In this document: positions 4,791 through 61,624 of the stretch, one piece after another
Position numbering within the stretch: position 1 is the first letter of the stretch
Layout: each line of letters opens with the position of its first letter
NCBI RefSeq assembly: GCF_963676685.1
Contig: NC_092351.1
Location: 83,576,001 to 83,640,000 of the forward strand
Origin: Mytilus edulis
Lineage: Eukaryota
Direction: 5' to 3'
DNA length: 64,000 nucleotides
Notes under the pieces: model-generated
What the model was told of the DNA's origin: nothing
Databases searched by the model: none
The model's input: only the letters and a program-made list of their open reading frames with translations
Position numbers and translations under genes: made by a program

Positions 4791-5983
4791 AATTTAATCG
4801 CATATTCAATACAACCCGGACAATTTATATTAATACATGGATTGTAAAACTCGTTTTAACAGCAAATCATTTGACCAGAAAAAATGGATCGTGCATGACT
4901 TTTCATTAAGATGTTGAAGGGACAAAATCTATTTATGTTCGTAATTGATCTGCTATTTTTATTTCTATTTAAAGATCAACTCGTTTTTTAAGTAACTGTA
5001 CAGATTTAACTTTGCACTGAGCATGCACAATAAAACATGTTAATGATGCTTTCTCGAATAACCCATTTTATCAATTCGAATCGACCAATGTGTTCCCATT
5101 AATAATTTTACATATATGAACATCAAATGATCCAGTATACAGTTGTTATAAGAAATCTGACAGAAAATACGCATTGACATGATGCAGAACTTTAACGAAC
5201 GAATATGTCTATTCTGAAGACTGATATGTTTACAGCGCTCATATCGTAATTCAGTACTTTTTTCAGTCCTTATATGCTTAAACGAAGATTGTTTATTGAA
5301 ATAAAAGGATTTTTTTGCATATAAATATATGTGTTAAATATTTATACATTTTGTTAAAACATTCATTATGTACACTGAACATGTCCTGTTAGGATAGTTA
5401 ATAATTATTATATACATTTCAATACTGCAAGTGTCCTAAAGAGATGGTATGTGCTTCGTCGCATATTTGAATAACTGTGTTCATGAATTATACTTCTGTA
5501 TGTCTGTTTGTTTTTAATATACATGTACACAAAAAAATATAAATAGAAGAACTTTATTATATGCGTAATAAGTCTGTCAATTTTAGAATTACATACATTC
5601 ATATAGTCAGCTTACACATTTTTTACCAACAGGATTCTATAACGAAACAATACTTTTACATTCAAACATGTTTTAATTTAACAAAAAATGTACGGTGTTT
5701 AATCTCACAGTTCAAATTAAAGATAAATAAATAGTGTGTCACTAACATATTTGGTTTTAATTCAAACAGATTATTTCAAACAAATAGTGTTATCTTATAC
5801 AGTGAATACGAAGGTTAACATGCACCTCATATGATAAATCATATTGCAGGTGACAACGCAACACTGTCTATCTGATAAAAAAAGATCAATTTTATATATT
5901 GGATAGATTAATACTTGTATCCACGTATTTGATATTTGAAAAGAAAAATTTTAAGAAGCAAAAATATCTGTACTACAGTGAAA

Positions 5984-8900
5984 ATGGCACAAACTTATAA
6001 CGTTTTGATGTTTATATTCTTATTCAGCAGTTTAGATGTCCTTCTAATTCGTAACACATCGGCATTTCTTATTGATGTTAGTGCTAATAATCATCAGGTT
6101 ACAAAAGATCCGCCATCTACACAACAAGCACAAAGGGATATTTCATTCCAAAGAGATATGAACCTGCTGAAACAAGAAGTGGAAATCTTAAAACAATCTC
6201 ATCCAAATTATCCGTCTGAAGAAATATCTCAAATGAAAAGTGTTATAATGAGTTTAAAAGAAACAATGCGTGAATTAAACGGAGAGGTACAAAGTTTACA
6301 AGTTGCAAAAGTAAATTTGATTGAGGAATTAAAGCAAGTCCGGAAGGAAATGTACAGGACCGAAAATAGAACTGCCGAACTAGCACTCGAATGCACTTCA
6401 TTTCTGAAAGACTTAAGTCACCTAACAACTAATCAAAACAAGAAACTTGAAAACAGTTTAGACATTCTTAAAAAGTCAGTTGCAGGCAACATCAGTTCAC
6501 TAAACCAGAAGATTTCTCATACAGACGCCCAGCTTAAATTGATATCGTTTACAACAAACTCGTGCTGCCAGAATGTCAAAGTATTACTGAATAAAACCCA
6601 TCTTTTAACTTCACATCCATCGACAACAATGACATTTACGACACCCACTACTGGAAAAGTCAACAACGCAATGATCGGGAGTTCTGTGTTTGAAGTACAA
6701 ACTACAATTTCTTCGACAAAACCCAGCGATATTAGGCGAACCGTTATTTTCTTTCAAAAATACGCTGTGTCTGGCCAATACTTGTTTATAAGAGGAGGAA
6801 TAGATGAACGTCACAGTTCAGGTATGTTGCTTACCTGTAGTATTTATAACCAGAGTGTCATGTTATTTATAGAAACTGTTGTATCGTCGTGCTACAAAAT
6901 ATATAGTTCTCCATGTGGTTTTGTTTAACATTTTTTCGCCATTTCGTGTTAGCATTGATATAATATTTCTTAAAACCTTCATTTCGGTGATTGATATACA
7001 ATATCAGAGCTTAGACAACTTTTGTGATGTAGTTTTAGTATTTAGTAAAGGGGCTAGGGTCCTCAAATAAATGTTCACTGATATGACTCAAATTCTTCTA
7101 TTTGATTTGTAACATACTTAAACGTATATCCAAATTATAAAAAGTCTAAAATAAGCAATTAACAAGGCTAGTGCATGATAATATGTATTTTCGTTTCGAG
7201 TGTATTTTAGTCTAGACTCCATCAAATGAACTATTGAATTGATATTAACATAAATATAGATATAAATAGATAGATAGTACTGCAATTATTTACTTCTAGG
7301 CACGTACGTTTAATGATAGATTAATCCATTTTTAGCTAAGGGGTTAAATTGAAAGTCACATGCATAGGAATTGAATGAGATCGAATTATTGAGACTTGCA
7401 TGTGAATAATTCGTCATAATTTTTACTTTGCTTATTTTGATAAAATTGAATCAAAACCGCTCTAAAAAGAGAATTTTTATATCACTATTTTCCACTTTCA
7501 TTCATGATTGAACAAAAAACATAGTTTTATATATGTATATCTCGTAGCGAGTGCTTATTCAAAACATAAGCTGCTTTTCAGGTTTATGTGCACTTTTTCC
7601 TGCGTGCTTCTGTGTTATTTATTTATTCTGTAGTTTCTTTAATTATTTTTCATACCTTTGAAAATGTTTTAATTATTTGAATTTTTTGCACAGTTCCTCT
7701 ATTCACCATTTGTTTTGCTATTCATGCTATTGTTCTCTGTTCTATAAACACCACCCAGATGTGTTTGTGTTCATATATTGTGCTGTTACAAACTGTTCCT
7801 ATATTATAAGGAGTGTTATCTATTGTGAACATATTCAATTATGCAATATACTGCTTGGGATTGTCCCAAACAAGACGACTGCAATGCAAATTAAGTGTTT
7901 CTCATATTTGGTTTTAGTTTCATGAAATTTAATTTTCCCGTTAGAATTCTTTTGCATGTTAAAGCCTTGTTTGGCTTGCTTTGCGGTTAGGGCTTTTCGC
8001 ATTATTGACATATCCTGATTTATATTTGCTAACTTCGATTTTTTTTGTTTATAGCTCTTCATATTTTTATTAAGCTTTGGATTTTCAAATATTTGGTCTC
8101 GGGCATCAATGAAGAGACATTGATTGTGCAGATAAATTGGGACCGTTTATATCACTAACATTTTTTTCAAATCCTATCCAGCAGATAATTTATGTTTGCT
8201 TTGAGAATATTTATCATTTAAAAAAAAATAATTTCAAGGATCAGAACCAATTGGTGATCTACTTCAACTACTTTTTGAAAACAAAATTGAAGATCATTTG
8301 AGATAATTTGAGATGTTTAGGGATTTAATTTACATTTTTTATGAGAAAAATTAAATTATCGTTAGTCATCATGTCATTTGTGATATTTTTGTATTATAAT
8401 AGTTCATCATAGTGTTTGCATTTTTAAATTATGCCTCAAAGTTGTAGCCAGTAAATGAAGAAAATTTCCTTTACTATATGTTTTGAATATAAATGTTAGA
8501 TTCATTGTTCTTTAGTTCATGTATTTTTCATTTAATTGTTGTACATAAACAGTGTCAGAAGAGCAACAGAAACAGGTGAAATTGCTGTATATTTTTATGT
8601 ATGCATAAAAGCAGATTTGATAGAAAAATATGACTAAAATTGTATATGGTTGTTTTCAGTATGTCTGTCATTAAAAATAATGATTTTAATGCATGGGAAC
8701 TATTTTTTTAACTAAAAAAAAAAACAAGTTTATTTTAACAAATTCAATATAAACTTAGGGTATTTTGTCCAAAAAAACTACAATTATGATAAAAAAACAA
8801 AACAAATCAACACTTAAATGGAAGAAAGTATCCATTTTCTTATTTTCTTCTATATTTCATTTATATTCTTTCGACTGTTGTTTATGGTAAGTAGTTATCA

Positions 8901-11604
8901 AAGGTACCAGGATTATAATTTAGAACGCCAGACGCGCGTTTCGTCTACATAAGACTCATCAGTGACGCTCATATCAAAATATTTATAAAGCCAAACAAGT
9001 ACGAAGTTGAAGAGCATTGAGGATCCAAAGTTCCAAAAAGTTGTGCCAAATACGGCTAAGGTAATATAAGGTAAGTGTCAGGAGTGCAACAAAATCAGGA
9101 AAGCAGGGTGTTCATATATCTTTTTTTTTATATTTGAATATTTTTTTTGGTTTGTTTGCCATCTAAAAAGATTACTCTTACACGAAAAGTAATGTATCTT
9201 AATTTGATCTTAAAAACTTTTTGAACCAGCCTCATAAAAAATGAGGGGGAAAAAGACAAAAAAATAATAATTAATAAAAAAAAGTGTAGTACAAAATGTT
9301 TTATGCCTGAAAATAATAACTTTAGTCCCAGTGATTAATTGCACTGTAAAAAACTGTCAATTTCTGTTTTGAATTCTTTTCAAAAAATATAATGCAATGT
9401 TTTCATGTTATAGTTTTCTTTTTTTTATATCCTGTTAATAAAAATGCTGAAACTTTTTTAATTATTTCTTGATTGTATTGTTCTCTTCGATTTACGAACT
9501 TCAATGAACAAACAATCTAAAATTACCGACGAAAAACTATTTCAACTTGGTTGAAAATTGACCAAAAAATTCAGTTTGTGCCTCATTCATTTTGAATTCA
9601 CGCATATCTTATTTTTATAACTCAGATAATGAGTTGTCGGAAGAGTTTAAACATTTCTTTTATTTGTAGATATTGGTATGCTGATAATTTCTCCTTATTT
9701 AACTTTGTTGTCTATCTATAATAGTTTTCAAAATGATAGACATGAATGAAAACATATTTAACATTTAAAGAGAAATAACTCATATAAGAAGGCGCATGCC
9801 ACTTAATTCGTAAAAACAACAGGTAGATCTGAACATTCTGATAATTTCTGTTTCGTCATGTTATCTCTATCCATAGCGGTTTTCTAGATGATCAACAAAA
9901 CTTGCATTCTACCTCTTTTGTTCAAGTCCTAGCAATGTCAGCTACAAAATGAATTCTGGAAAAAATGTTGAATGTTTAAAACGAATGTTGAAAGTTAAAC
10001 ACGAATGTTGAAAGTTGAACACGAATGTTGAAGGATGAACTCGAATGTTGAAAGTTGAACACAAATATTGAAGGTTGAACACAAATGTTGAAAGTTGAAC
10101 ACGAATGTTGAAGGTTGAACACGAATGTTGAAAGTTGAACACGACAGTGAGAGTTGATCACGAATGTTGAAAGTTGAACACGAATGTTGAAAGTTGAATA
10201 CGAATGTTGAAAGTTGAACACGAACGTTGAAAGATGAACACAAATGTTGAAAGTGTGTATGTTGACAGGTACATTGGATCATCGGATCATATTTTAAAAC
10301 TAGATTCCGCAATAATGGTTGTAGTCAAGTCTAATTAAATTTCAGAAAAAAAAAATAACGACGAAGACGACGGACGGAAGATGCAGGATGACAAGTGATG
10401 ATAACTGCTCAGTTGGCTTTTCGGCTAAATGAGTTCAACTCAGTTTATATAGATTCGAAATAAGAGACATTTTCAGTTATTATAGTCGTTTAAAGATAAT
10501 ATTTTTTCAGGTTGTAGAGGTATGTCAGTGGCATCAATGAGTAATTGTTCCATACCAATACAAAGCATCAATCTTGGATCAAGCGGACAGTATGACGCGT
10601 ATAATGCATGGCGAAATGGAGACAAGTTATTGGATTGGTTTGGACCGGAGCCTGGTCAAGGTACATTTCAAGGAGAACGGGCCTTTGGTACGCCGGCTGT
10701 CTGGACGACTAACAACCCAAGTGATGGTAGATACAACAAACTCAATACGTAAGACTTTTTAAAAAAACCCACCTCTATATCAATGTTCACATAAACATTT
10801 TGAGTGTAGGGGATCGGTTCATTCACGTGCTGATTTCGAATGATAGGTTCAGTCTGCTACAATTAGAAATAAGGACAACGACTGACCGGTTTTGAATCAG
10901 GAAAATGTGTCAACGTAGGGTGACTTGTTTTCGAGTTAAAAATGCTTTATGATTTTTTGTTGGAAAGCGGATAAAATTCTGATGACTGGGCTATGAATAT
11001 TTCTTTAACAGGAATTTTCTTTTGCTTTTTTGATAAATTGTCAATACTTATACAAAATCAAAGGTTTTATGACGCGTTTAATTCATGGCGAATTAAAGAA
11101 CCTGGTCATGGTATATTCATAAGAAACAAATAATTCTTATCCACGAAATCAACGAAATTAAATCTTTAACGAAAATTGATGCTTTTACGATAGTGATATG
11201 GTGTATTGTTCTAATAATTATATACGATTTCAAATATAGATGATATTGAAAACTGAACACTCAATGCAATATGAGGACTGATTTGAATTTGTAAAGATTG
11301 TGTAACTTAAAATGTGTAATACTCTATGATTTATGTGTTTTATCGTTTTTACAGATTTGGCGAACATTATTGGTTAGTGAACATTGAAATGGATTGTTCT
11401 AAGACAATTAGTGGTTGGTTCGAAGTAAAAGCTTATATTGGCTCTAATGATAATTTTAACTGGGAAGATAACATACTTCAACATAATTCTTGCTTCGGAA
11501 CCGAAAGAACTCCGTATGCAAATGTTTATCACTGGGCTAAATGTGGAATGATGAACGTTTTTCATTTTAATCAAGTGGCATGTGAAACGTATATAATAAA
11601 TTAG
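5984..11604 (+). CDS. Secreted coiled-coil protein ending in the alpha-amylase C-terminal (putative carbohydrate-binding) module; exons 5984-6821, 10511-10748, 11355-11604; 441 aa
   Basis: ATG 5984, hydrophobic N-terminus, heptad-rich middle, T/S-rich linker. Motifs RTVIFFQK..GQYLFIRGGID, CSIPI, WRNGDKLLDWFG.E.GQG, GTPAVWTTN, LNTFGEHYWLVNIEMDCSKT..GWFEVKAY, WE..I.Q, HWAKCG..NVF.FN follow the order recalled for the P. haloplanktis amylase C-terminal domain. GT-AG introns have matching phases (1 and 2). Stop TAG 11602-11604. Confidence 0.9.
8893..9069 (-). ncRNA. Retrozyme fragment with intact minimal type I hammerhead ribozyme (8925-8968) in intron 1
   Basis: Minus strand reads GCGUCA-CUGAUGA-GUC(UUAUGUA)GAC-GAAA-C(GCGC)G-UC^UGGCGU with all core nucleotides present. 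Flanked by a GGTAAGT direct repeat (8886-8892, 9070-9076), a possible TSD. Confidence 0.85.
9965..10255. repeat. 20-bp tandem array (AATGTTGAAAGTTGAACACG)n, ~14 units, inside a probable Helentron-type HINE (end near 10440)
   Basis: Units are directly visible. Nearby GACG-rich tract and GCTCA...TGAGT hairpin at ~10360-10440 resemble a reversed HINE 5' end. Confidence 0.8.
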
Positions 11605-17789: not shown

Positions 17790-18200
17790 CTCAAAAAATT
17801 TTGATAACAGAGAATACATATACACATTTTCGTAAATGTCAAATGTTCCGTAATAGTGCTTATCAGGATGAAATGAAAACTTTATGAACTGCTTCAAGTT
17901 GTTATCGCATGCTTCTCCGTAACGTTACCAGTAAGGTCACCAGTGCTTTGATTGCTTGCTATTGTGTTCAGACAGCTTTTTCTTCAACAACATATGGTGA
18001 TACTAGAACAACCGAAATTTCTATTCTTAATTTATCAGAGGGGGAGTAGATGAACGTCATAGATCAAGTACAGGGGCTGATTAAGAGGGTTTTTCAGCGG
18101 CCGGTCCCCCCTTTTGTTGGAAAAGATTGGTTGATTACATAGGCTTAAATACCGCCAGTGAGGTATGATGCTTATCTGTAGTATTCATTATCAGAGTAGG
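17790..18200 (+). pseudogene. Decayed paralogous copy of the 3' part of exon 1 of the 5984-11604 gene
   Basis: TTTATCAGAGGGGGAGTAGATGAACGTCATAGATCA matches TTTATAAGAGGAGGAATAGATGAACGTCACAGTTCA (6785-6820). GGTATGATGCTTATCTGTAGTATT matches the intron start GGTATGTTGCTTACCTGTAGTATT. A ~90-bp insertion sits at the splice site. Confidence 0.7.
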
Positions 18201-18806
18201 TGTGTTAATTTAAAGAACAGGATCACAAGCAGATAGTTCTCCATATGTTCTGATATTGTTTATCGATTTTTACATTGTTTACATTGCCATTTTTTCTTTA
18301 ATCATGGATAAGAGTACCTTTAAACCATTCATCGGGGAGATATATAATAAAACATGGTTTAACAACTTTTTGAATTATAAAGTATTAAGAATATCAGTCT
18401 TCTTTACTAATGGAAATAGACAACAGCAAAAAACACTTTTTGAGATGTTGTTGCATTTATAAATACATTTACTGCTGATATTTACTTGTATACATATATC
18501 AATAATTGCTTTGTACGTAATTTTAAAGGTTAACAATTAATTTAGGCCACTTGCATCCATGAATAAATGTTAAATCTCAATTAAAAAGTAAAAATACAAA
18601 AATACTGAACTCCAAGGAAAATTCAAAAAGGAAAATAAAAAAACAAAAGGCAAAATCAAAAGTCCAAACACATCAAACGAATGGAAAACAACTGTCATAT
18701 TCCTGACGTGGTACAGGTGCACCAAGCTAGGATCCAGCGGACATGATACAACGTACAATGCATGGAGACATGTAGAACATATCCTGGATTTAAGATGGGT
18801 GTAAAC

Positions 18807-18924
18807 CTGGTCATGAGACATTACTAGGACATCACACTTAAGCTCTATGGATTACCAATAACCCACTGGTCATGAGACATTACTAGGACATCACACGTAA
18901 GCTCTATGGATTACCAATAACCCA
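18807..18924. repeat. 59-bp tandem duplication (2 copies, 1 mismatch)
   Basis: CTGGTCATGAGACATTACTAGGACATCACAC(T/G)TAAGCTCTATGGATTACCAATAACCCA twice. Confidence 0.9.
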
Positions 18925-45880: not shown

Positions 45881-48620
45881 GTTGTTAGTGAAGCCACTGG
45901 CCATATCGTATAATATAAGCAACTTGGCTGATAGTTATTCAAACCGCTGGAAATGTTGTTATTGAAACTACTAGGCGTGATTTTTATTGATGCCACTATT
46001 CGTGTTGTTTTTTAATACATTGCACAAATTTTAATTAAAACCACTGGGCTGATACTTGATTAAGGGTCTTGAAATGTTGTTATTTACGCCACTGGGCGTG
46101 TTGTTATTGATGCCACTGGGCGCGTTGTTATTGACACCACATGGCGTGTTGTTATTAACGCCACTGGGCGTGTTGTGATTGACGTCACTGAAGTTGTTGT
46201 TATTGACGCCACTGGGCGTGTTGTAATTGATGCCACTGGGCGTGTTGTTATTGATGCCACTGAGCGCGTTGTTATTGACACCACATGGCGTGTTGTTATT
46301 GACGCCACTGGGCGTGTTGTGATTGACGTTACTGGGGTTGTTGTTATTGACGCCACTGGGCGTGTTGTTATTGATGCCACTGTGCGTGTTGTTATTGATG
46401 CCACTGGACGTGTTGTTATTGACACCACTGGGCGTGCTGTTATTAACGCCACTGGGAGTGTTGTTATTGACGCCACTGGGCGTGTTGTTATTGACGCCAC
46501 TGGACAGTTTGTTATTGACGGCTCTTGGCGTATTATTGACGCGAATGGGGATGTTGTTATTGACGCCACCGGGCAGGTTGTTATTAAAGCCGCTGGGCAG
46601 GTTGACACTGAAGCCCCTGGGCAAGATGCTGTTGAAAACACTGAGTAGTGGGTAGGTTGTTATTGACACCACTCAGCGTAATGTTATAAATATCACTGGG
46701 CAGGCTGTTATTGACGCTACCGGGCAGGTTGTTGTTGACACCACTGGGCGTGTTATTATTTAGGCCACTAGGCAGGTTGATATTGAAACCACTGGGCAAT
46801 ATGCTGTTGAAGCCAGTAGGCAGTTTGTTATTGACGCCTCTTGGCGTATTATTGACGCCATCGGGCAGGTTGTTGTTGACGCCACTAGGCGCGTTGTTAT
46901 TACAGCCACTGGTCAGGTTGACATTTAAGCCACTGGACAAGATGATTTTGAAGTCACTGGGCAAGATGCTGTTGAAGCCACGGAAAGGGTTGTTATTGAG
47001 GCCTCTTGGTTTGTTATTGACATCACTTGGCGTGTTCTTATTGACACCACTTTGCGTGTTATTATTGACGTGATGTTATTTACGCCACTGGGCAGGTTGT
47101 TATTAACGCCAATAGGCAAGATTCTGTTGAAGCCACTGGGCAGGTTGTTATTGGCGCATACTGGCGAGTTATTGACGCCACTGGGCACGATGCTGTTGAA
47201 GCCACTGGCCATGTTGTTATTGGCGCCTATAAGCGTGTTATTGACGCGACTGGGCGTGTTGTTATTGACGCCAGTGGGCGAGGTATTATTGATGCCACTG
47301 GGTGTTGTTATTAAAGCCACTAGACACATTGACATTGAAGCCACTAAGCATGTTGTAATTCAAGCCATGGGCTACAAGTTATCTAAACCATCAGACAGGT
47401 TGTTATTGATGCCGATGGACAGGTTGTTGTTGACACACAGGGCAATTATGTATTGAAGCCACTGGGTAGGTTGCTTGTGAAGTCAACGAGCAGGTTGTTA
47501 AAAGTTTCACTTGGCATGTTGGTAATGGAGACAGTGGGCAGGTTGTTTGTAAAACCACTTGGCAAGTTGTTGTTGAAGTCACTGGACTAGTTTTTATTGA
47601 TGCATATGGACAGCTTGTTGTTGACGCAGCTGGGTGTGTTCTTATTGAGGCCACTGGGTAGGTTGTCAAAGATGCCACTGGGCGGATTGGTATTGGAGCC
47701 GCTTGGAAGATTGTTTGTAAAACCTGTGGGCAGTCTGTTGGTGAAGACACTTGCCTTGTTCTTATTGACTCCCATAAATGGGCAGGTTGTTGTTTACGCC
47801 ACTTGGCAGGTTGTTTAAGCTCGGGCGTGTTGTTTTTGAAGAAACTGTGCAATTTGTAATTAAAGCTAATGTACTAAAAGTAATTAACCAACTGGACATG
47901 TTGTTGTTGAAGACACTGGGCTTGATGTTGAGGACATTCGGTTAGTAGATATTGAAGACACTGGGATTGGTGTTAAGAACATTGGGTTGGTAAATGTTGA
48001 AGGCACTGGGCTTGGTGTTGAGGACATCGGGTTGGTAGATATTGAAGACACTGAGCTTGGTGTTGAGGACATTAGGTTGATAGATGTTGAATACACTGGG
48101 CTTGGTGTTGAGGACATTGGGTTGGTAAATGTTGAAGACATTTGCAGTGACTTGACTGGTTGTTGTTGAAGCCACTGAGCAGGTTTTTATTACAAGCACT
48201 TGACTGATAGTTATTCAAGACATGGGACATGTTGATGTTGAAAAAACTGGGTAGGTTTTTATTGCAAACTCTTGGCTGGTAGTTATTCAAGACACTGGGC
48301 ATGTTGATGTTGAAAACACTGGGTAGGTTGTTGTTGAAGACACTGTGTATGTTGTTATTGAATACATTGCTGATTGTTTTTGAAGACTTTCGACATGTTG
48401 TTTAGTTATTGAGGACAATGGGTTTTTTGGTATTGAAAAAAAAAACTGAGCTGGTTGTTGAAATTAGCTGCTGGTTGTTAAAGATACTGGACTGATTGTT
48501 GTTAAAAACACTGGATCGGTTTTGTAAACGCCCCTGGAGATGTTATTAAGACACTAATGTTGTTGTCGTTTAAAACACTGGGCAAGTTAAATTAAAGGCA
48601 CTTGGCTGGTTGATGTTGCT
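45881..48620. repeat. Degenerate 24-bp array (GTTGTTATTGACGCCACTGGGCGT)n with a 45-bp sub-array (~47900-48140); fainter units also at ~39900-40020 and 40722-40742
   Basis: Units are directly visible and give stop-poor octapeptide ORFs in several frames (NNNTPSGV, TTRPVASI, VVIDATGR). Confidence 0.9.
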
Positions 48621-50916
48621 TAGCAAATTATTATTATAGTCACTAGGGTGAATGTTTAGACAATACGAAATTGTATTGAATCTATTAGACATGTATTTTG
48701 GTATAGTATTTAACTAAATAAGTTTCTTTAAATAGTTATAATAAGATGCTCACATACACCTGGATCAATATATAATTTAAAATAAAATTCACTAAGTAGT
48801 CAAATGTTAATAAGTTCTCAAAATGATTCGTCTCTCGAATTCAAGACCCAGAGCTAACACCTGTACTTCTGATAAGATTTTTCTGAAGCATAACAGGTTA
48901 CATCCGGACAGAGGAAAGGATGGTGACGTTAGAAAAGACTTTCCAGCACAGTTATCTATTCATCGAAATTAGGAAATAAAAACAAATATTCAATGTTATT
49001 TTCCCATTCTTTGTGTTTCGAGAGCCATTGCCTCTGCAAGTGGCGTCTCCCATGTAAGAGTTTGTGAATATTTGATAAATATTTTATGTTCGTATGAGTT
49101 TACGAATTAGAATTTAAATGTATTTATCAAAGTTGTACAAAATCGAACATGTAAAATTTTGTTTGTTTATAGTTGACACGTGTTTGGATAATTATAGTAA
49201 GGTCGGTTCGATTGGGATATTGAGTTAATGCACGAGTGAACTCAGGTGGTTTAAAGTCATTCGAGCCATTGCAGTCAAAATGTACAGTAGTATTTTGCAA
49301 AAGAAACAATATTATTAATCATATTATTTATTTTAAGATTTGTGAACCACAAGTATTGGGAAACCAGTACATGCGACTAAGTAGCTATATAGACATGTAT
49401 TTATATGAACTTTCAACAATATTTTACTCATATTTATGATAAAATGTGCGCTTGTCTCTGCAAAAAGTAAAATCACAAAAATACTGAACTCAGAAGAAAA
49501 TCAATTAGGAAAGTCCATAATACATGGCAAAATCAAATAACAAAACGCATCAAAAACGAATGGACAAGAACTGTCATATTCCTGACTTGGTACAGGCATT
49601 TTCAAATGTAGAAAATGGTGTATTAAGTGGCGTCTCCCATGTAAGAGTTTGTGGTTATTTGATAAGTATTCTATGTTCGTTTGAGTTTACGAATTAGAAT
49701 TTAAGTTTTATTTTATCATATAAGACATGTCTATAGATACAAACCCTTCCTCTTCTAAAAATACTGTAGTGCAAATGAAGACCTTGCCCAATTGTGTTGG
49801 TTTTTCGGAAAAGAGTTTAATAGAAATAAGAAAAAGAAAACCGGTAATAATACTATAATGAGAAAAAAACATTTTAATAACATAATTGTTAAAGACAATT
49901 GGTATAGTATTTAGCCTTAACCTACACATTTTCAATAAAACACACATAATAACTCACTCAAATACACAAAGGAATGATCAAATTAAAAAAACAATATATA
50001 TAATACCGTCACATACAATTTTTATCAGATCAAAAATTTTCAAGAAAACAAATGCGTTGATTTTATTCAGCTTCTGCTATTAATGTTCACGTATGACACG
50101 TATGCGGAAAGCTCACCTGAATACACTTAACATTTTAAGCTATAAAATAAATTACGTTTCTTGGAATTGTTTTATATGATTCTTAGTGCCCCCTACAGTT
50201 TTCACTAGAACATGGATTTAATCATATACTGTAAATTCCAAAATTATTTTTGAGCGATAGATACAAATGTCGGTCGATTATCGATGTAGCATACAGATTA
50301 TAAGATAAAATATGAAATAATAATTTGTTTTTGTGTCATCTTTTGCGTCGCAAGTTTTGAATTAATAAAACCATTTCAAAGACTTCAGAATTTACGTTAA
50401 TGCAAAGTTCATGAGATTTTACATTTCCTTTTATTCTCTCGTCTTAATAATGTAATTATATCAGTATGACCCATATGCGAAGCGACATCCAAAGCACTTT
50501 CATGGCGTTGGTTTCGAAGGTTAGTATTACAATTGTAACCTAATAACAGTTCTACAATGCGGGTATGACCCATACTTGAAGCTATGTGTAGAGGACTCTG
50601 CTTGTACTTATCACACAAATCGGGATTACTATTGTTTTCTAACAATGTTTCTGCAATTTCTGCATAACCTTTAAACGTTGCTTTAAAAAGAGGCGTTTCC
50701 ATCTGTTTGTTACATTTATTTGTATCACAGTTCTGTTTTAACAATAATCTAACAATATCAATATAACCCTTGCCTGCAGCTATGTTCAAAGGTGTCTCAC
50801 CATACTTATCACAAATATTAGGATCACAATCATGTTCTAACAATAATTCTACAATTTCTGCAAAACCCTGAAGCGATGCTTTAAAAAGAGGCGTTTCTTG
50901 ATTTTTGTTACATATA

Positions 50917-51122
50917 CTGTAAATTCAGAAATTATTGCGAGGTTTTTATTATTGCGAATAATGCGACTGAGTTGTAAACGCAATAATTAAAACTCGCATT
51001 TTGTAATATTTGAACTGACTTAAGCATGACTTTTCTCAAAATCGTAAAAATTAAAATCACATTCAAGTGTAAAATGACAAAATCGCAATAATAAATGCAC
51101 GCAATAATTTCTGAATTTACAG
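50917..51122. mobile_element. Tc1/mariner-pogo-like MITE, TA TSD, inside the ankyrin ORF
   Basis: TA|CTGTAAATTCAGAAATTATTGCG ... CGCAATAATTTCTGAATTTACAG|TA. Excision restores CYPNICNKNQETPLFKAS. Confidence 0.92.
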
Positions 51123-53331
51123 TATTGGGATAACATTTGTATATTAGCAATAATCGTACTATAGCCGTATTACCATTTCTTGAAGCTGTGATGAGAGGTT
51201 TTTCGTCATCATAATTACATATGTTAGGATTACAATTGTTTTGCATCAATAACTCCACAATGTGTGCGTTAGAGTTATCAACAGCTGTAGAAAGAACCTT
51301 TTTATATGTTTCTATACTGATATCAAGTTCGGTTTTTTGTTGGTTAAAGATGTATTTGACAATTTCGGTATTACCAAAGCAGGTTGCAGCATACAGTGGA
51401 CTTGTATCGGACGAATCACACACCTCAATTTTGCACCTGTGATCAATCAGAAGTTTGGCAATATTGGTTAGCCCAGAGTATGAGGCTATATAAAGAGGTG
51501 TCATGCTTTCTTTATTGAACATGTTTAACTCACACTCATGATGCAATAATAATTCCATAACCTCAAAATGGTTATGAGCAACAGCAATGAAGAGAGGTGT
51601 CTCGTGTCTCTTATTGCAGAGATTGAGCTCACATTTGTGGTGTAGGAGCAATTTAACAATTTCTACGTTTCCTTTCCCAGAAGCGACAAACAGTGGTGTT
51701 TCGTTTTCTTCATTACAGATATTAAAATTACAATCGTAATTTAATAATAATTTGACTATTTCAGTATAACCATGTAAGGCTGCTATATAAATGGAGGTTT
51801 CTTTGTCATTATTGCAAATATTCGGATTAGCGTTATGTTTTAATAATATATTTACAATATCTATAGAACCATTTGAAGCAGCCGAACACAAAGGACTGCT
51901 GATATCAAGATCTGCTTTGTACTCTAACAATAATGCTAGCATATCAATATTACCAGTATGTGAAGCAACTATATCCAGACAGGTTTGATTGTTTGGACTA
52001 AGAGTATTTATATAGTCAGCACCTTCAATCTCATCACTCAAAGGTATATATGCTTTGGTAGCATTTTGCTCTTTATCGTCATAGATGTGTTGTAATAGCA
52101 ACCTCGCTATGTGGATTCTATTTTTAATGCAAGATATAAATAACGCGTTTGCAAGGTTATCATAGAATATATAACGATCACAATAGTGTTGCAACAATAA
52201 TTTTACAACCTGAATATGGTCGTTATGGCAAGCTATCAACAACGGTATTTTGTCTTTTATATTGCAGATATCTGGATTACAATGGTGTTGCAAAAGTAAA
52301 TGAACAATATCAGCATTACCATCTCTCTCGGCTAAATAGAGTGCTGTCTCATTATCTTTATTAAAGAGATCTAGATCATCGGTATGTTCTATTGATGATT
52401 TAAGAATATCTGTTTTACCAGACATCGAGGCGATATGCAAAGCTGTTTTATTGGCCCTGTTACAGATATTTGCAATACACTGGTGTGTCAACAATAATCT
52501 TATTATCTCAATTCGACCATTCATACAGCCATCATAAGCGGTGTGCACCCAAAAGTATCGGCAGCATTTACATTTGCTTCTTTTTTTAACAATAATTTAA
52601 CAACATCTGTTTGACCTGAGAAAGAAGATCGCAACAGAGGCGTTCCTCCATATTTATCACGTATATTTATGTCACAATTCTGGTTTAAAAGTATTTTTAC
52701 AATATCAGCATGACCAACACTGCTCGCTACGTGCAGCGCTGAGTGGTTGAATTCGTTATCATTACTATTTACTTTAACTTGTTGTTCCAATAACGAATTA
52801 ACTGCAGTTATATCACCCTTCTTGCAAGCCAAATAAAAACGTACTGTATCATAACGATTCTTCATAATTTCCCTATCTTTAAATTGTAGCATCATGTCTA
52901 CAATTTTTGTGTAATCATTTTCTACAGCAACGAAGAAAGGTGTTATATTGATTATATTACAAATATTGTAATCGGCGCCATCTTTTAAAAGTTCCTTTGC
53001 AGTATCCGTGTGGTTTGCCATCGAAGTTCTCAAAAGAGGTGTTACATTATCCTCATCGCGGTGATCTGTTTCTGATTTGTACTTTAACAGTAACGTTACA
53101 ATGTCTGTGTAACCTTTTTCCGATGCAATATCAAGAGGTATACGACTGTACTTATCACTCAAATTTGGGTTTCCTTTATATTCTAGTAGTAACTTTACAA
53201 CATCAATAAAACCTCCCTTTGCAGCTTCAAACAGAGGTGTAACATCTCCCCAGCTACCAATATTAGAGTCGGCATTATATAATAGCAGTAGTTTAACTAT
53301 AGCGGCATCTCACTTCAATGCAGCTACATAC

Positions 53332-55193: not shown

Positions 55194-55341
55194 AATAGGA
55201 TCTCTACAGTATCAACAAAGCCTTCTGATGACGCTTCATATAATGATGTATCGAATGAACCATCGGTGCTAGTGTTACAATTCACAGCAACATGTTCTGA
55301 TAATAATAGTGTTAGCATGTCACTGAAACCTTGACGAGCCA

Positions 55342-56307
55342 TTGACATCAACAACAGAAAAAGAAAACCAACCTTATACTGTATACCCTATCACAGATGC
55401 TGAAGTAAATGCCACACTGCCATTTTTAACTATTGACGATATCAGTAGTGAGGAAGTTACATTTTATACAGGTTTACCTAATAAGCCGACATTTTATTTA
55501 TTGTATGAACATATTATGTCAAATATAAAAATTGTTGAGCCAGAGACTGGAGGCAGACCTCAAAAACTTAGAGGTGTGGATGAATTATTTATGGTTCTAA
55601 TGCGGTTGCGTCTGGGTTTACTTACTCAGGACTTGGCACGTCGTTTTAATATTTCTGTTTCTACTTGTAGTAAAATATTTAACAAATGGATTGATTTAAT
55701 GTATGAACATTTACATTTTCTTGTTGCCTGGCCTGATAGAGAAACTGTCAAATGTAATATGCCTGACAGTTTTAAAAGGAGGTATCCAAATTGTCGTGTA
55801 ATTATAGATTGTACTGAAATATTCACAGAAATGCCACAGTCATTATCTAATAAAGGAAGAATGTACTCTGACTACAAGTCACATACGACATGGAAAGTTT
55901 TAATAGGAATAAGCCCAAATGGTGTGATTACTCATGTGTCTGACCTTTGGTCAGGTAGTATATCAGATAAACAAATAACAAAATCCAGTGGTCTTATTAA
56001 CAAGTGTGATCCAGGCGATGCAATAATGGGGGATAAAGGATTTCTTATATCTCATATGTGTACTCCGAAAGGAATTTATCTCAAAGTACCACCAACCAAA
56101 AAAAATGGTAAATTGACAAAACATGAAGTTGAAAAAACGAGGAGGATAGCTAATCTTAGAATACATGTTGAGCGTGCCATGGAAAGAATTAAAAACTTCC
56201 GTATAATACAAGGAGTAATGCCAATTTCCATGTCAGAAAAAGTTTCAAAGATTGTATTTATTGTTTGTGCTCTTTGCAATTTGCTACCACCTCTTATTCA
56301 ACAATAA
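55342..56307 (+). CDS. HTH_Tnp_4 + DDE_Tnp_4 (HARBI1/ISL2EU-type) transposase, N-terminally truncated
   Basis: FYTGLP, LFMVLMRLRLG..QDLARRFNIS.STCS.IF..W, IIDCTE, YSDYKSH.T.K.LIGISPNG, G.ISDK, GDKGF, IANLRIHVERA.ERIK.F. D-D-E triad intact. No true start codon or THAP domain seen. Confidence 0.9.
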   Translation: MTSTTEKENQPYTVYPITDAEVNATLPFLTIDDISSEEVTFYTGLPNKPTFYLLYEHIMSNIKIVEPETGGRPQKLRGVDELFMVLMRLRLGLLTQDLARRFNISVSTCSKIFNKWIDLMYEHLHFLVAWPDRETVKCNMPDSFKRRYPNCRVIIDCTEIFTEMPQSLSNKGRMYSDYKSHTTWKVLIGISPNGVITHVSDLWSGSISDKQITKSSGLINKCDPGDAIMGDKGFLISHMCTPKGIYLKVPPTKKNGKLTKHEVEKTRRIANLRIHVERAMERIKNFRIIQGVMPISMSEKVSKIVFIVCALCNLLPPLIQQ

Positions 56308-57632: not shown

Positions 57633-60265
57633 TTAATTGTACAATTTCAGCCTTCGTTTTACACGGCTTGTAAATAGTTCTGGTACAATGGCACTACAGA
57701 AAAATGCATTTAACTTAGGTAACATGATGTTTTCCCAAAGTTCTTTGTAATAGCATATTCTTTCAAACTCCATTCCTTTATTGGTCCAAACAACAAAGTG
57801 ACACCATGCACGTTTAGTTATAGCTAATTGTCCCTGAACTTGATAATAATAAGAATGACTACGTTTAAGTCTTAAACGCCCAAAATTATCCAGTTCACAA
57901 CAAAAATTGCTCTGCCTTGCCGCTTCCAACGGATGCGTGTCTCTTAGGGCATAAGGACATTTAACCTCAATCACACCATGATATGGATTACAATGTGGAC
58001 AATAGACTAATCCATCAGGAGTAGCACCCAAATGTGGCAAATTCTCATTTATAATGACACCATTTTTTGTAGCTGTGAGTGGTGGATGACTCTCCCTTAC
58101 ACGAATGAGGTAGCTATCAATAGCTATTTGCTCATGATCTTTGCCCCAGCTGATTGCTGCATTTTTGAAACTTGGTGTGTAATCTAAAAGATACTTTATG
58201 AGGTTGTCAGGTTCAGTGTCAACCTTTCTCCTGACAATATTCCCAAACTTTGACGCCGTTAGACGCCCTCTGCGTACCTGTTTCCATAGAGAGTTTTTGT
58301 GTTGCTCTCTTGTAGCTACTTCAATTTTACTACAATCATCCTTTGTTATTTTCAAACTATCAAAATAGGATAAAAAATGTTGAACACACTCAATACTAGT
58401 AATATCAACTGTATCCATGTATGAAAAGTTAATGTTATGAAGTTTTGGCAATGTTGATACACTTGTATTATTCTCACATGAATCTGATATTTGTGGAAAG
58501 TTCATTAACCAGCCAGCATCAGGGTTTACATTCATAAGTCTTTCCTTAAAGCTCAGAATTGCTGGAGTTGACAGATCTTTCGAGAACGATGCATTTACAC
58601 TGTAAAGGGAAACTTTTCTATCGGGAGACTTAAATTTATTGAATACCATTTCTTGAGTTTTTTTTGGAGACAGGTTTCTGTTGCGTGGCTTTATCCATTC
58701 ACAAGCCTTTGAGGTTGGTGCAATCTTGCCAGAATATTTTTGTTGTGTTATGTCTGCTATGCCATATAGAAGAGCTGCTATGTGACTACAGGATTCTCCA
58801 GCCCTGCAAAAAACTTCTATATCAATACTTGTAGTCAAATAACTATAAAAACAAAACAATTGTTGAAACACTTCAAAATAAAACTTTAGTAACAATATAA
58901 ACATTAATTTATTGGAACTAGATTAGAAATAGATAGGAAATGTACATTAAGATAATAAAAATAAACTTGCTTCTACATTATAAAATGGTTGTTATATTAT
59001 TTCCATGCTCTAATTAATGATTAGTAAGTACATGTAATCATTTCATGTTGCTTTAAACATTTATCTTAATTTACAACATGAATCTTGATTGTGAAAATTT
59101 GTAAAATTAATCACATGTTCTTCCTATGACCATATAATATATTTGACACCTACAAGTTAATCTTAATTGGTCCAGTATATTTATTTATTACAGGAAAACA
59201 TGCAATTTTACAGGTACAAAATGTAGTCTGCCTGCACAGCTTGGTCTCATTACCAGCTGATAACAGGAAATAACATATACAGTGACAATGAAATTGAATA
59301 TGATTATTTGATCTAAAAAACAATAGTCATTTATTATGTGCATATTTTTTTTTAATGAATATGTGTAAATGTGCAATAGTAACTGTACTAACAATATAAA
59401 AAAATGTATGTCAACATAACTCAAATGGTTGAATAATGAAGGAAAAAATCCAAATAACTTAATTTTGGAATAATCATACTATTAAAGTCATAAAATGAAA
59501 TAATAGAGGAGATTAAAATCATTAATATTGAAAATATTTTTACGGGTTCATTTTTACATTACAAGATCAACAAAATCAACTTTATTTTATTTCTAGCAGT
59601 AGAATCATTTTATATAAAAATGGAATGCAGGTGATGCATGAACAAATTAATGTTTGCTTTATATTGAGGATTGTTCATACATTTTGCAAAAAAAAATATT
59701 CTAAAGAGACTTACCCTGCTACACAGTTGCACTCAGCATTATGAACTCTCCCAGTAACCTTCGACAAATACACCCAAGTCTGGTATGCTGGCTTCTTTTT
59801 CTTATCCTTTGTTGGTATAGATGGGAGACAGTGGCACTTGATGATACAGTGGGAGCACTTTTCAGATATTTGATGGCAATTAATGTTAGAAATGTGTCCT
59901 TCTTGGTAAAAAACCTTTGTCTTCAGTTGACGTCTATCTCCCAATTCACTGGCATCGTAAGATCTATGTCTACTTAAAACTAAAAAGTTATATAGTTCTT
60001 TGTGTGTAAAGTCCGGAAATTGGTCACAATTAGTTGACCAACCCTCCTTTAATTCTGTTGGACTGGGTAAATGTTCACCTAATGGCGTGAGAAGAGGCGA
60101 CTTTATATCATCTCGGGGTGCATTATTGTTTATGTCTAGGCCCAGATCTTTAGCCCCTTTTGCCCGCTCTATTAATTCAGGCTTATTTCCGAAAGTTGGT
60201 TGGTTACACTTCTTCAGAAAATGCTGTAACACTTTCTTTTTCCAAGTATTGAAGTCACTTGTCAT
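57633..60265 (-). CDS. SWIM zinc finger + YqaJ (lambda-exonuclease family) protein; exons 60265-59715 and 58803-57633; 573 aa
   Basis: A phase-2 GT-AG intron joins AECNCVAG|AGESCSHIAALL (CxC-xn-CxH SWIM). YqaJ motifs: W...R..RLTASKF, WGKDHE, LGATPDG, IEVKCPY, YYYQVQGQL. No internal stops. Confidence 0.9.
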
Positions 60266-61624
60266 TGCTATCTATAAAAACTGTCCTGGTTCACGTAGAT
60301 ATCGATATATAGTAAACTAGTAATTGATGAAGTGGGCGTTGTTATGGACGCTGGTAAGTGTACCTACCGGAAGCAGTAAATCTCCGATAGCGGAGAATGC
60401 CTAAAGGGAAATAACCTAGTTATCGGAAAGGGCTATATAGATAGTGTGGTGCACAGTGTATAGAACCAAAAGAAATTTTGAAAAACATAGCAAATACTAT
60501 TTATTTTTACAATATACAATGTGTTTTTTGTGCAAACATTAAAGGTAGTGAAATAGGCATAATGATGACATCTATTAATTTATAATATACGAGCTAAGTA
60601 GAAATTCCCTGCTATATTTATATCTTTTCTATTTTAAGTATCATATTACTTGGAAATATTGTAAACAGCATTTATAAGAAAAGTATTACTGTAATTATAT
60701 AATATAAGTTGATTGGCATATGATATCTATACCTTTTGTATTTTGATATTTCCTGGGCTATTTTCTATATCACTTAATTTGATTTTAAGCATTATACACA
60801 GATGATGACAGAAAAATGCAACATAACAATAAAAAAAGACAATATACATGTATCAAAATAACATTTCTCTGTGGCTAAGGGAAGCAACTCATATTGATAT
60901 GTTACATACACTTTCATATGAAAAACATCCACTTGTTATCCTTTCATTTATGATATATTCGGAAATTGATTTGATATTGATATTCTAAACAATTTGTGCA
61001 AACAGCAGCTAGTACTGAACACATACAGAAAATTTTATGCATACTTTAATTGAATTCATCATCTAAATTATTTTTGCTCTTGATTTTAAGGGAAGCAATT
61101 CCAGCTTAAAATGTTTTCAAATTATTCATATTCATATTACAGATCTATTTTAAATGAGAATTTCACAATTAACATATTAAAACCACCACGTATGCAATGA
61201 TGTAAAAGAACAAACACTAAAAAGAGAGAAATATTTTTATAAAAACTTAAAACAACCTCAGATCTCAGAATGAATAATCGAGTTAATATATATTCTTTGT
61301 ATGTTTATAATCTTGTATGAATATTGTTAGTGCTTCATAAGCCTCTAAAGGCTGGCTGATATGGTATACTATTGCTAATGTATTGAAATGTAATTGTAAT
61401 TTCATGTATATTGTATCAGGTTGCACTTTATATAAAATAAAATCTAAAATCTATATCAGTTTGATAAACACCAGTTTTGATCATTGAGAAGCTTAATATT
61501 CCTTTTACAACACAACGTAATACAAACAATCAGCTGACTCTACAAAGTAATATCCCTGAAGTGTTAGGTACCACTTTAAGACATCCCCAGTTGACAGATG
61601 TCAAAATCTTTTAAATTTTATTAT

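Follow-up and report, generated by a model that had tools for sequence, protein, structure and literature searches.

Can a module known from the C-terminal end of alpha-amylases work on a polypeptide that carries no enzyme? This question is raised by a gene in a 64,000-nucleotide stretch of the Mytilus edulis genome (contig NC_092351.1, positions 83,576,001 to 83,640,000; G000:C8:83576001-83640000), the whole of which is hereafter called the window. The gene, at window positions 5984-11604 on the forward strand, encodes a protein of 441 amino acids (aa), in which a predicted signal peptide and coiled-coil stalk are followed by a Thr/Ser-rich linker and a head homologous to the amylase module. 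We lean towards the interpretation that the product is a secreted, stalk-oligomerised, multi-head alpha-glucan binder used in feeding or digestion beside amylase A, which is encoded in the same gene cluster. The original prediction had presented the protein as a candidate new family of oligomeric lectins; this label is overstated, and the gene is a real chimera in which a known but poorly understood module appears in a new arrangement.

Gene structure, transcripts and domain layout

The open frame is assembled from three exons (5984-6821, 10511-10748, and 11355-11604), all joints having GT..AG ends, and the splice product is identical to the M. edulis RefSeq protein XP_071127434.1, which is labelled 'uncharacterized protein'. 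For RNA evidence, 24 runs were listed, four of which, including a raw-read run (X24), were compared with the locus. At least 0.87 of the sampled exon 1 words were present in 20 of the 24 runs. Three runs of one study were nearly devoid of these words, and X24, about 6% of which was read, gave zero reads on the exons; both results are compatible with tissue, low level, or absence of the gene. The first junction, 6821/10511, is crossed by contigs from three of the four runs (X1, X2, and X13), which skip the 3689 bases of intron 1 (6822-10510, phase 1) with GT..AG ends. The second, 10748/11355, which delimits intron 2 (10749-11354, phase 2), is crossed by two contigs of one run (X13), and other contigs around it carry many differing letters indicating a paralogous origin. 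Both predicted junctions are therefore seen in RNA contigs, and the stalked gene is real, spliced, and expressed. Intron 1 also harbours a tandem repeat array with a unit of about 21 bases (9975-10255).

At the 5' end, one contig (X1) spans 5839-6816 unbroken, while those of X13 and X2 begin at 5840 and 5898, respectively, which defines a transcribed and unspliced leader (5839-5983) with an in-frame TGA at 5930-5932. Because the unspliced 5' end extends past this stop codon, the splice acceptor at about 5978 is unused and no amylase domain is present in these transcripts. Neither this result nor the homology of the head (see below) bears out the two refuting outcomes named in the original prediction. 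The whole 441-aa protein matched neither GH13 nor any other Pfam family, and no (beta/alpha)8 catalytic domain was found in the polypeptide by Pfam comparison, as had been expected from the sequence. It could be argued that the three exons merely end a longer amylase gene (amylase B, a module, the stalk, and a second module), considering that in record CAG2234202.1 (P0192, 1153 aa) a stalked copy is joined to amylase B. However, this record enters in the middle of the signal peptide and truncates the first module, its sister record of the same label (P0193) is a fusion of amylases A and B, contigs from three RNA runs cross both the fusion site and the 5978 acceptor without such a joint, and RefSeq keeps the genes separate. 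We rejected the fused model for its entry within the signal peptide, the unjoined RNA contigs, and the separate RefSeq genes, and regard a longer amylase as extremely improbable.

Residues 1-27 (5984-6064) are predicted to form a signal peptide that is kept in three Mytilus relatives; residues 7-21 are hydrophobic, the peak 19-residue hydropathy is 1.46, and cleavage, judged by eye, is likely between TSA and F. Residues 46-207 (6119-6604) are predicted to form a coiled coil. An AlphaFold model based on a 48-sequence alignment contains helices at 46-72, 78-125, and 130-207 and a confident domain from about residue 250, and the hydrophobic periodicity of residues 78-200 peaks at 3.56 (p 0.0005 against 2000 shuffles), as it likewise does in two relatives. 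Cys137 and the pair Cys194-Cys195 are conserved in all five aligned stalks and could serve as interchain links. The Thr/Ser-rich linker (residues ~206-247; 6605-6724) has a predicted local distance difference test score (pLDDT) below 50, and the model shows disorder at residues 206-243. The predicted succession of signal peptide, heptad region of ~150 aa, linker, and complete Cys/Trp-rich domain of ~200 aa is thus borne out, the signal peptide by eye. As for a donor of the stalk, protein and DNA searches of the mussel's own genome returned only the two stalked genes, and database searches returned Mytilus records only (for the module search, among the best 150 of 495 clusters); the best stalk score in the ESM Atlas (0.79) is a lead at most. 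Weak Pfam coiled-coil matches were discarded as generic, and structural matches of the stalk helices to gp41, BAR, and spectrin as common arrangements.

The head (aa 248-441) begins at the end of exon 1 (6725-6821, aa 248-280), continues through exon 2 (aa 280-359, including Trp322), and ends with exon 3 (aa 360-441 and the stop codon, including Lys384, Trp395, Glu396, and Tyr417). Among 91 candidate proteins it matches 29 including itself, the 28 others all with E values below 1e-15. Identity is 44-54% to the tails of bivalve, snail, starfish, and crustacean (water-flea) amylases and 33-41% to bacterial proteins. Against residues 476-667 of P0024, a close relative of the crystallised Pseudoalteromonas haloplanktis amylase (catalytic part versus PDB 1aqh, E 4e-284), identity is 38% over 209 columns (E 2e-36), which agrees with the original assignment of the head to the amylase C-terminal module. 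The module is complete, with six Cys and seven Trp residues, and all six near-invariant positions (99-100%) are kept: C373, H418, C422, G423, E396, and W365. Homology to the P. haloplanktis propeptide and the invertebrate amylase tails extends over the whole length of the head, but the mussel protein differs from these amylases in having no catalytic domain and in carrying the head on a coiled-coil stalk. This amylase C-terminal domain is reportedly also treated by Da Lage (2004).

Coiled-coil FReDs and C-type lectins have the same layout as the sC1q-like type II proteins of bivalves. In the latter, a signal peptide, a coiled coil, and a C-terminal globular head follow one another (in the part of PMC6835236 available), as is predicted for the mussel protein. 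The original prediction had compared the gene with these recognition proteins and considered an immune role. The layout stands as predicted, whereas the kinship does not: by Pfam, the head is not a C1q, fibrinogen, or C-type lectin domain, no kinship between the stalks was detected, the stalk being unrelated to recognised lectin stalks, and the genome contains two such genes versus hundreds for C1qDC. Relaxed or mixed selection together with the exchange of modules among copies (see below), the replacement of Asn417 by Tyr, which could shift specificity, and the presence of two TIR-domain genes 60-100 kb upstream would be compatible with an immune lectin. Yet the gene is embedded in an amylase cluster and nothing beyond the layout points to immunity. 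We consider an immune lectin unlikely, and a digestive role more likely than an immune one. The two upstream genes (C8:83476343-83478829, L005; 83498952-83501432, L007) are intronless open reading frames (ORFs) of ~830 aa that have hydrophobic stretches and a weak TIR_2 match and lie upstream of the amylase cluster.

Predicted fold and candidate sugar-binding site

The module has no Pfam family, and sequence searches of the PDB returned no relative of it. For a stand-alone module from shrimp, modelled with a pLDDT of 92 on 113 sequences, Foldseek placed CGTases, glucoamylases, a beta-amylase, and STBD1 at the top. When the same model was compared with 48161 chains by VIA-align, 21 chains had Z scores of at least 5 and all 21 were starch or glycogen enzymes or binders, two of which we take to be laforin and SEX4. 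Against the same 48161 chains, the best eight matches of the mussel model were seven CBM20-bearing structures and one CBM25; the best (8x8k) had a Z score of 9.7 and a root-mean-square deviation of 2.3 with 92 of 97 residues aligned, and the core superposes on 91-102 residues of CBM20 structures with Z scores of 8.6-9.7. CBM_20 was also the feature in 29 of 30 ESM Atlas matches. The predicted beta-sandwich core is thus like that of the CBM20 domains of STBD1, glucoamylase, GPCPD1, CGTase, and beta-amylase, and the motifs TxxGQ..F.RG, LDW, YW, FE.K, WE, and NH follow one another in CBM20 order (by eye). However, the mussel module has ~190 residues including three conserved Cys-bearing inserts, compared with ~100 residues for the CBM20 fold.

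Site 1 of CBM20 consists of W543, K578, and W590 (PMC9069913, in the part available), and W322, K384, and W395 of the mussel head occur in a matching order. Among 178 module copies, Trp322 is kept in 165, Lys384 in 162, Trp395 in 157, and Glu396 in 177. Since profile tests gave no confirmation, the head is predicted from these models to work like CBM20, rather than shown to be CBM20. The proposal that it is a carbohydrate-binding module is consistent with the modelled fold and is narrowed by it to a CBM20-like one. A forced global profile run that reported 97% involved only a single column and was discarded as an artefact.

Origin, distribution and selection

Four module genes are present in the genome, in tandem on one strand within 52 kb: amylase A (C8:83535747-83541716), amylase B (G000:C8:83544781-83556754; L011-L013, protein P0036), the neighbouring stalked copy (C8:83562886-83565853; L013:6886-9853), and the gene of the window, which is the last. 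Blastn and tblastn also found the decayed remnant of a fifth copy of the module on the forward strand at window positions 18031-18865 (pieces 18031-18070 and 18719-18865), which is interrupted by stops and contains a short duplication within itself. Both module introns are at the same places in all four genes. The DNA likeness between the window gene and amylase B starts inside the Thr/Ser linker, the distal part of which is homologous to that of amylase B. In a tree of 33 rows, a long branch leads to one 13-row clade (100/100) comprising the modules of the stalked proteins and amylase B, and the amylase A module groups with those of scallop and ark-shell amylases. Since linker DNA and both introns are common to the window gene and amylase B, the window gene is likely to have arisen by partial tandem duplication of amylase B; we infer that a copy of the 3' part of that gene was joined, inside an exon, to a sequence encoding signal and stalk. 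The domain shuffling originally suggested accords with the tandem cluster, common introns, linker DNA, and tree.

The GH13 acid/base Glu is replaced by His in the amylase B records of five Mytilus species, and these records also lack the Gly-rich loop that follows the third catalytic motif. It is probable that amylase B is a long-kept pseudo-amylase still bearing the module and, because of the His replacement, the likely parent of the stalked genes may already have been a non-catalytic binder. Sequence comparison further indicates that module exons have moved between copies: in M. galloprovincialis, the stalked protein ends with an exon that shares 98% identity with the last exon of amylase B in the present genome. 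Among P0034, P0036, P0192, and P0193, module exons vary from haplotype to haplotype and have changed places between amylase B and the stalked genes, a pattern suggestive of copy-number variation at the locus and of unequal crossing-over or conversion.

The stalked form was detected in Mytilus only, in records of M. edulis, M. galloprovincialis, and M. coruscus and in one further contig; when the collected proteins with the module are ranked by a rough heptad score, the three Mytilus proteins come first. With two stalked genes and one remnant in this genome, the proposed new family did not find support. It had also been proposed that the module was freed from its enzyme, which is so in the sense that a catalytic domain is lacking, but this is not special to the mussel. 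Among ten chosen proteins, enzyme-free modules, stand-alone or in tandem, occur in shrimps, five snail genera, an EGF-repeat limpet, and Daphnia, although some of these records could be partial gene models. Like the mussel protein, the records from Palaemon, Macrobrachium, Biomphalaria, Lymnaea, Plakobranchus, Elysia, Patella, Daphnia, Gigantopelta, and Meganyctiphanes combine a hydrophobic N-terminus with the module and lack GH13; they differ from it in having no stalk and in falling outside the Mytilus clade of the tree, some gaining valency by tandem modules instead. Enzyme-free or multi-copy records from shrimps, snails, limpets, Daphnia, and krill (P0042, P0057, P0059, P0069, P0171, P0045, P0048, P0037, P0007, and P0035) are mostly labelled 'alpha-amylase'. 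One amylase was seen with six module copies, and a crab record (P0020) joins the module to an LPMO10 domain. No paper on the gene or on stalked or enzyme-free modules was found in a literature search that covered articles outside their supplements and genome-paper tables, and the available parts of PMC3584928, PMC11083476, PMC13180774, and PMC8467227 contain nothing on the module.

The ratio of nonsynonymous to synonymous substitution rates (dN/dS) between the window gene and amylase B is 0.22 (188 codons, Fisher p 1e-11). Between the two stalked copies it is 0.55 for the module (p 0.024) and 0.47 for the N-terminal part (p 0.002). These values, which gene conversion may blur, indicate that the stalked gene is under purifying selection and that this selection is relaxed. 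Ratios near 0.5, a frameshifted neighbouring copy, the remnant at 18031-18865, and a damaged M. coruscus copy might suggest a young duplicate that is expressed without an important function and is heading to decay. In this assembly, the neighbouring stalked copy is one base short near L013:7511. It is open in P0034 and P0005, one of which is a M. galloprovincialis record and the other a contig, and the frameshift may be either a null allele or an assembly error; among RNA contigs from four runs on this copy, one crosses the place with one gap. However, both stalk and head have dN/dS significantly below 1, the frame is open in records of M. edulis, M. galloprovincialis, and M. coruscus, and spliced RNA occurs in three studies, and we judge decay to be very unlikely.

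Elsewhere in the window, ankyrin-repeat ORFs are found in three frames of the reverse strand (50409-53309). A DDE_Tnp_4 transposase (55327-56307, forward), a YqaJ-like nuclease ORF (57633-58922, reverse), and a SAP-domain ORF (59711-60271, reverse) lie side by side and probably represent mobile elements. Broken ORFs of higher guanine-cytosine content without Pfam match at 330-2040 have, by eye, the look of a decayed DNA transposon, and a long low-complexity tandem array is located at 46030-48400.

Function and implications

In the feeding interpretation towards which we lean, the predicted signal peptide would direct secretion of a protein with no enzyme attached, the CBM20-like head would bind starch or glycogen, and the coiled-coil stalk would bring several heads together and make binding avid, so that algal starch granules or glycogen might be held or loosened for amylase A. 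A stand-alone CBM20 is described as boosting amylose hydrolysis by a truncated glucoamylase in the introduction of PMC9069913. The module spans 495 clusters at 50% identity, the best 150 of which were listed (Pfam scans covered 141 of 145 new proteins and 21 earlier ones), and among the listed relatives it occurs on GH13, GH14, and GH31 enzymes and beside CBM20, CBM21, and CBM26.

Several observations weigh against this interpretation. Among the same listed relatives, bacterial modules are also carried by proteases (S8, M4, M12, M64, C11, and trypsin), phosphatases or phosphoesterases, phospholipases or lipases, and oxidases; such non-amylolytic carriers speak most strongly against a role confined to starch targeting, and a pure starch role explains them poorly. 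The Foldseek matches are all weak (best E 6e-3). About 90 of the ~190 module residues are inserts absent from CBM20, which may cover or alter the site, and the site 1 residues were mapped by motif order and by eye, not by superposition. Comparison with four CBM20 sequences by hhalign gave 2-5% probability, a core-only profile was not significant (best E ~0.6 among 1535 windows), PF00686 did not match the protein, and the module exons lie outside the three PF00686 matches in the genome. The window copy has Tyr417 where 165 of 178 module copies have Asn, and the M. coruscus stalked copy lacks Trp322 and Trp365. Finally, the neighbouring copy is frameshifted, selection is relaxed, and the module tree is unrooted and drawn at midpoint, with the direction of duplication taken by parsimony.

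The varied carriers fit a module that acts as a general tether to surfaces, mucus, or matrix or as an aid to folding or secretion, with the stalked protein being structural in mucus, the crystalline style, or another secretion. Tandem modules in mucin-like animal proteins and the large inserts around the CBM20-like core point the same way. So does the P. haloplanktis amylase tail, an independent propeptide that is cleaved after secretion (PMC1766363, in the part available). The same source, however, describes it as dispensable for secretion in Pseudoalteromonas, which speaks against a secretion aid; no ligand for propeptide-type domains is given in the available parts of PMC1766363 and PMC3096672. 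Considering also that the best fold matches are all alpha-glucan binders and that the candidate site 1 residues are conserved, we find a tether or folding aid improbable. A wider extension of the feeding interpretation, which we offer tentatively and with more doubt than confidence, is that the amylase 'propeptide' represents an unclassified, insert-laden CBM20-type family that has repeatedly been freed from its enzyme in invertebrates. The mussel locus would then show a series from active amylase through the dead amylase B to the stalked binders, the last being a new oligomeric alpha-glucan lectin that catches starch-bearing algae or microbes.

Ever since its description as a propeptide that is cleaved off in bacteria, the module has been puzzling, and it has neither a Pfam family nor a solved structure. 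An expressed and selected animal protein consisting of module and stalk implies that the module works without an enzyme, and it offers a ready construct for a binding test. In addition, the gene clearly exemplifies a chimera whose likely parent adjoins it. If alpha-glucan binding is true, the module would constitute a starch-binding family over ~495 sequence clusters, and the stalked protein may, without being an enzyme itself, assist the digestion of starch or the capture of particles in a bivalve that is farmed.

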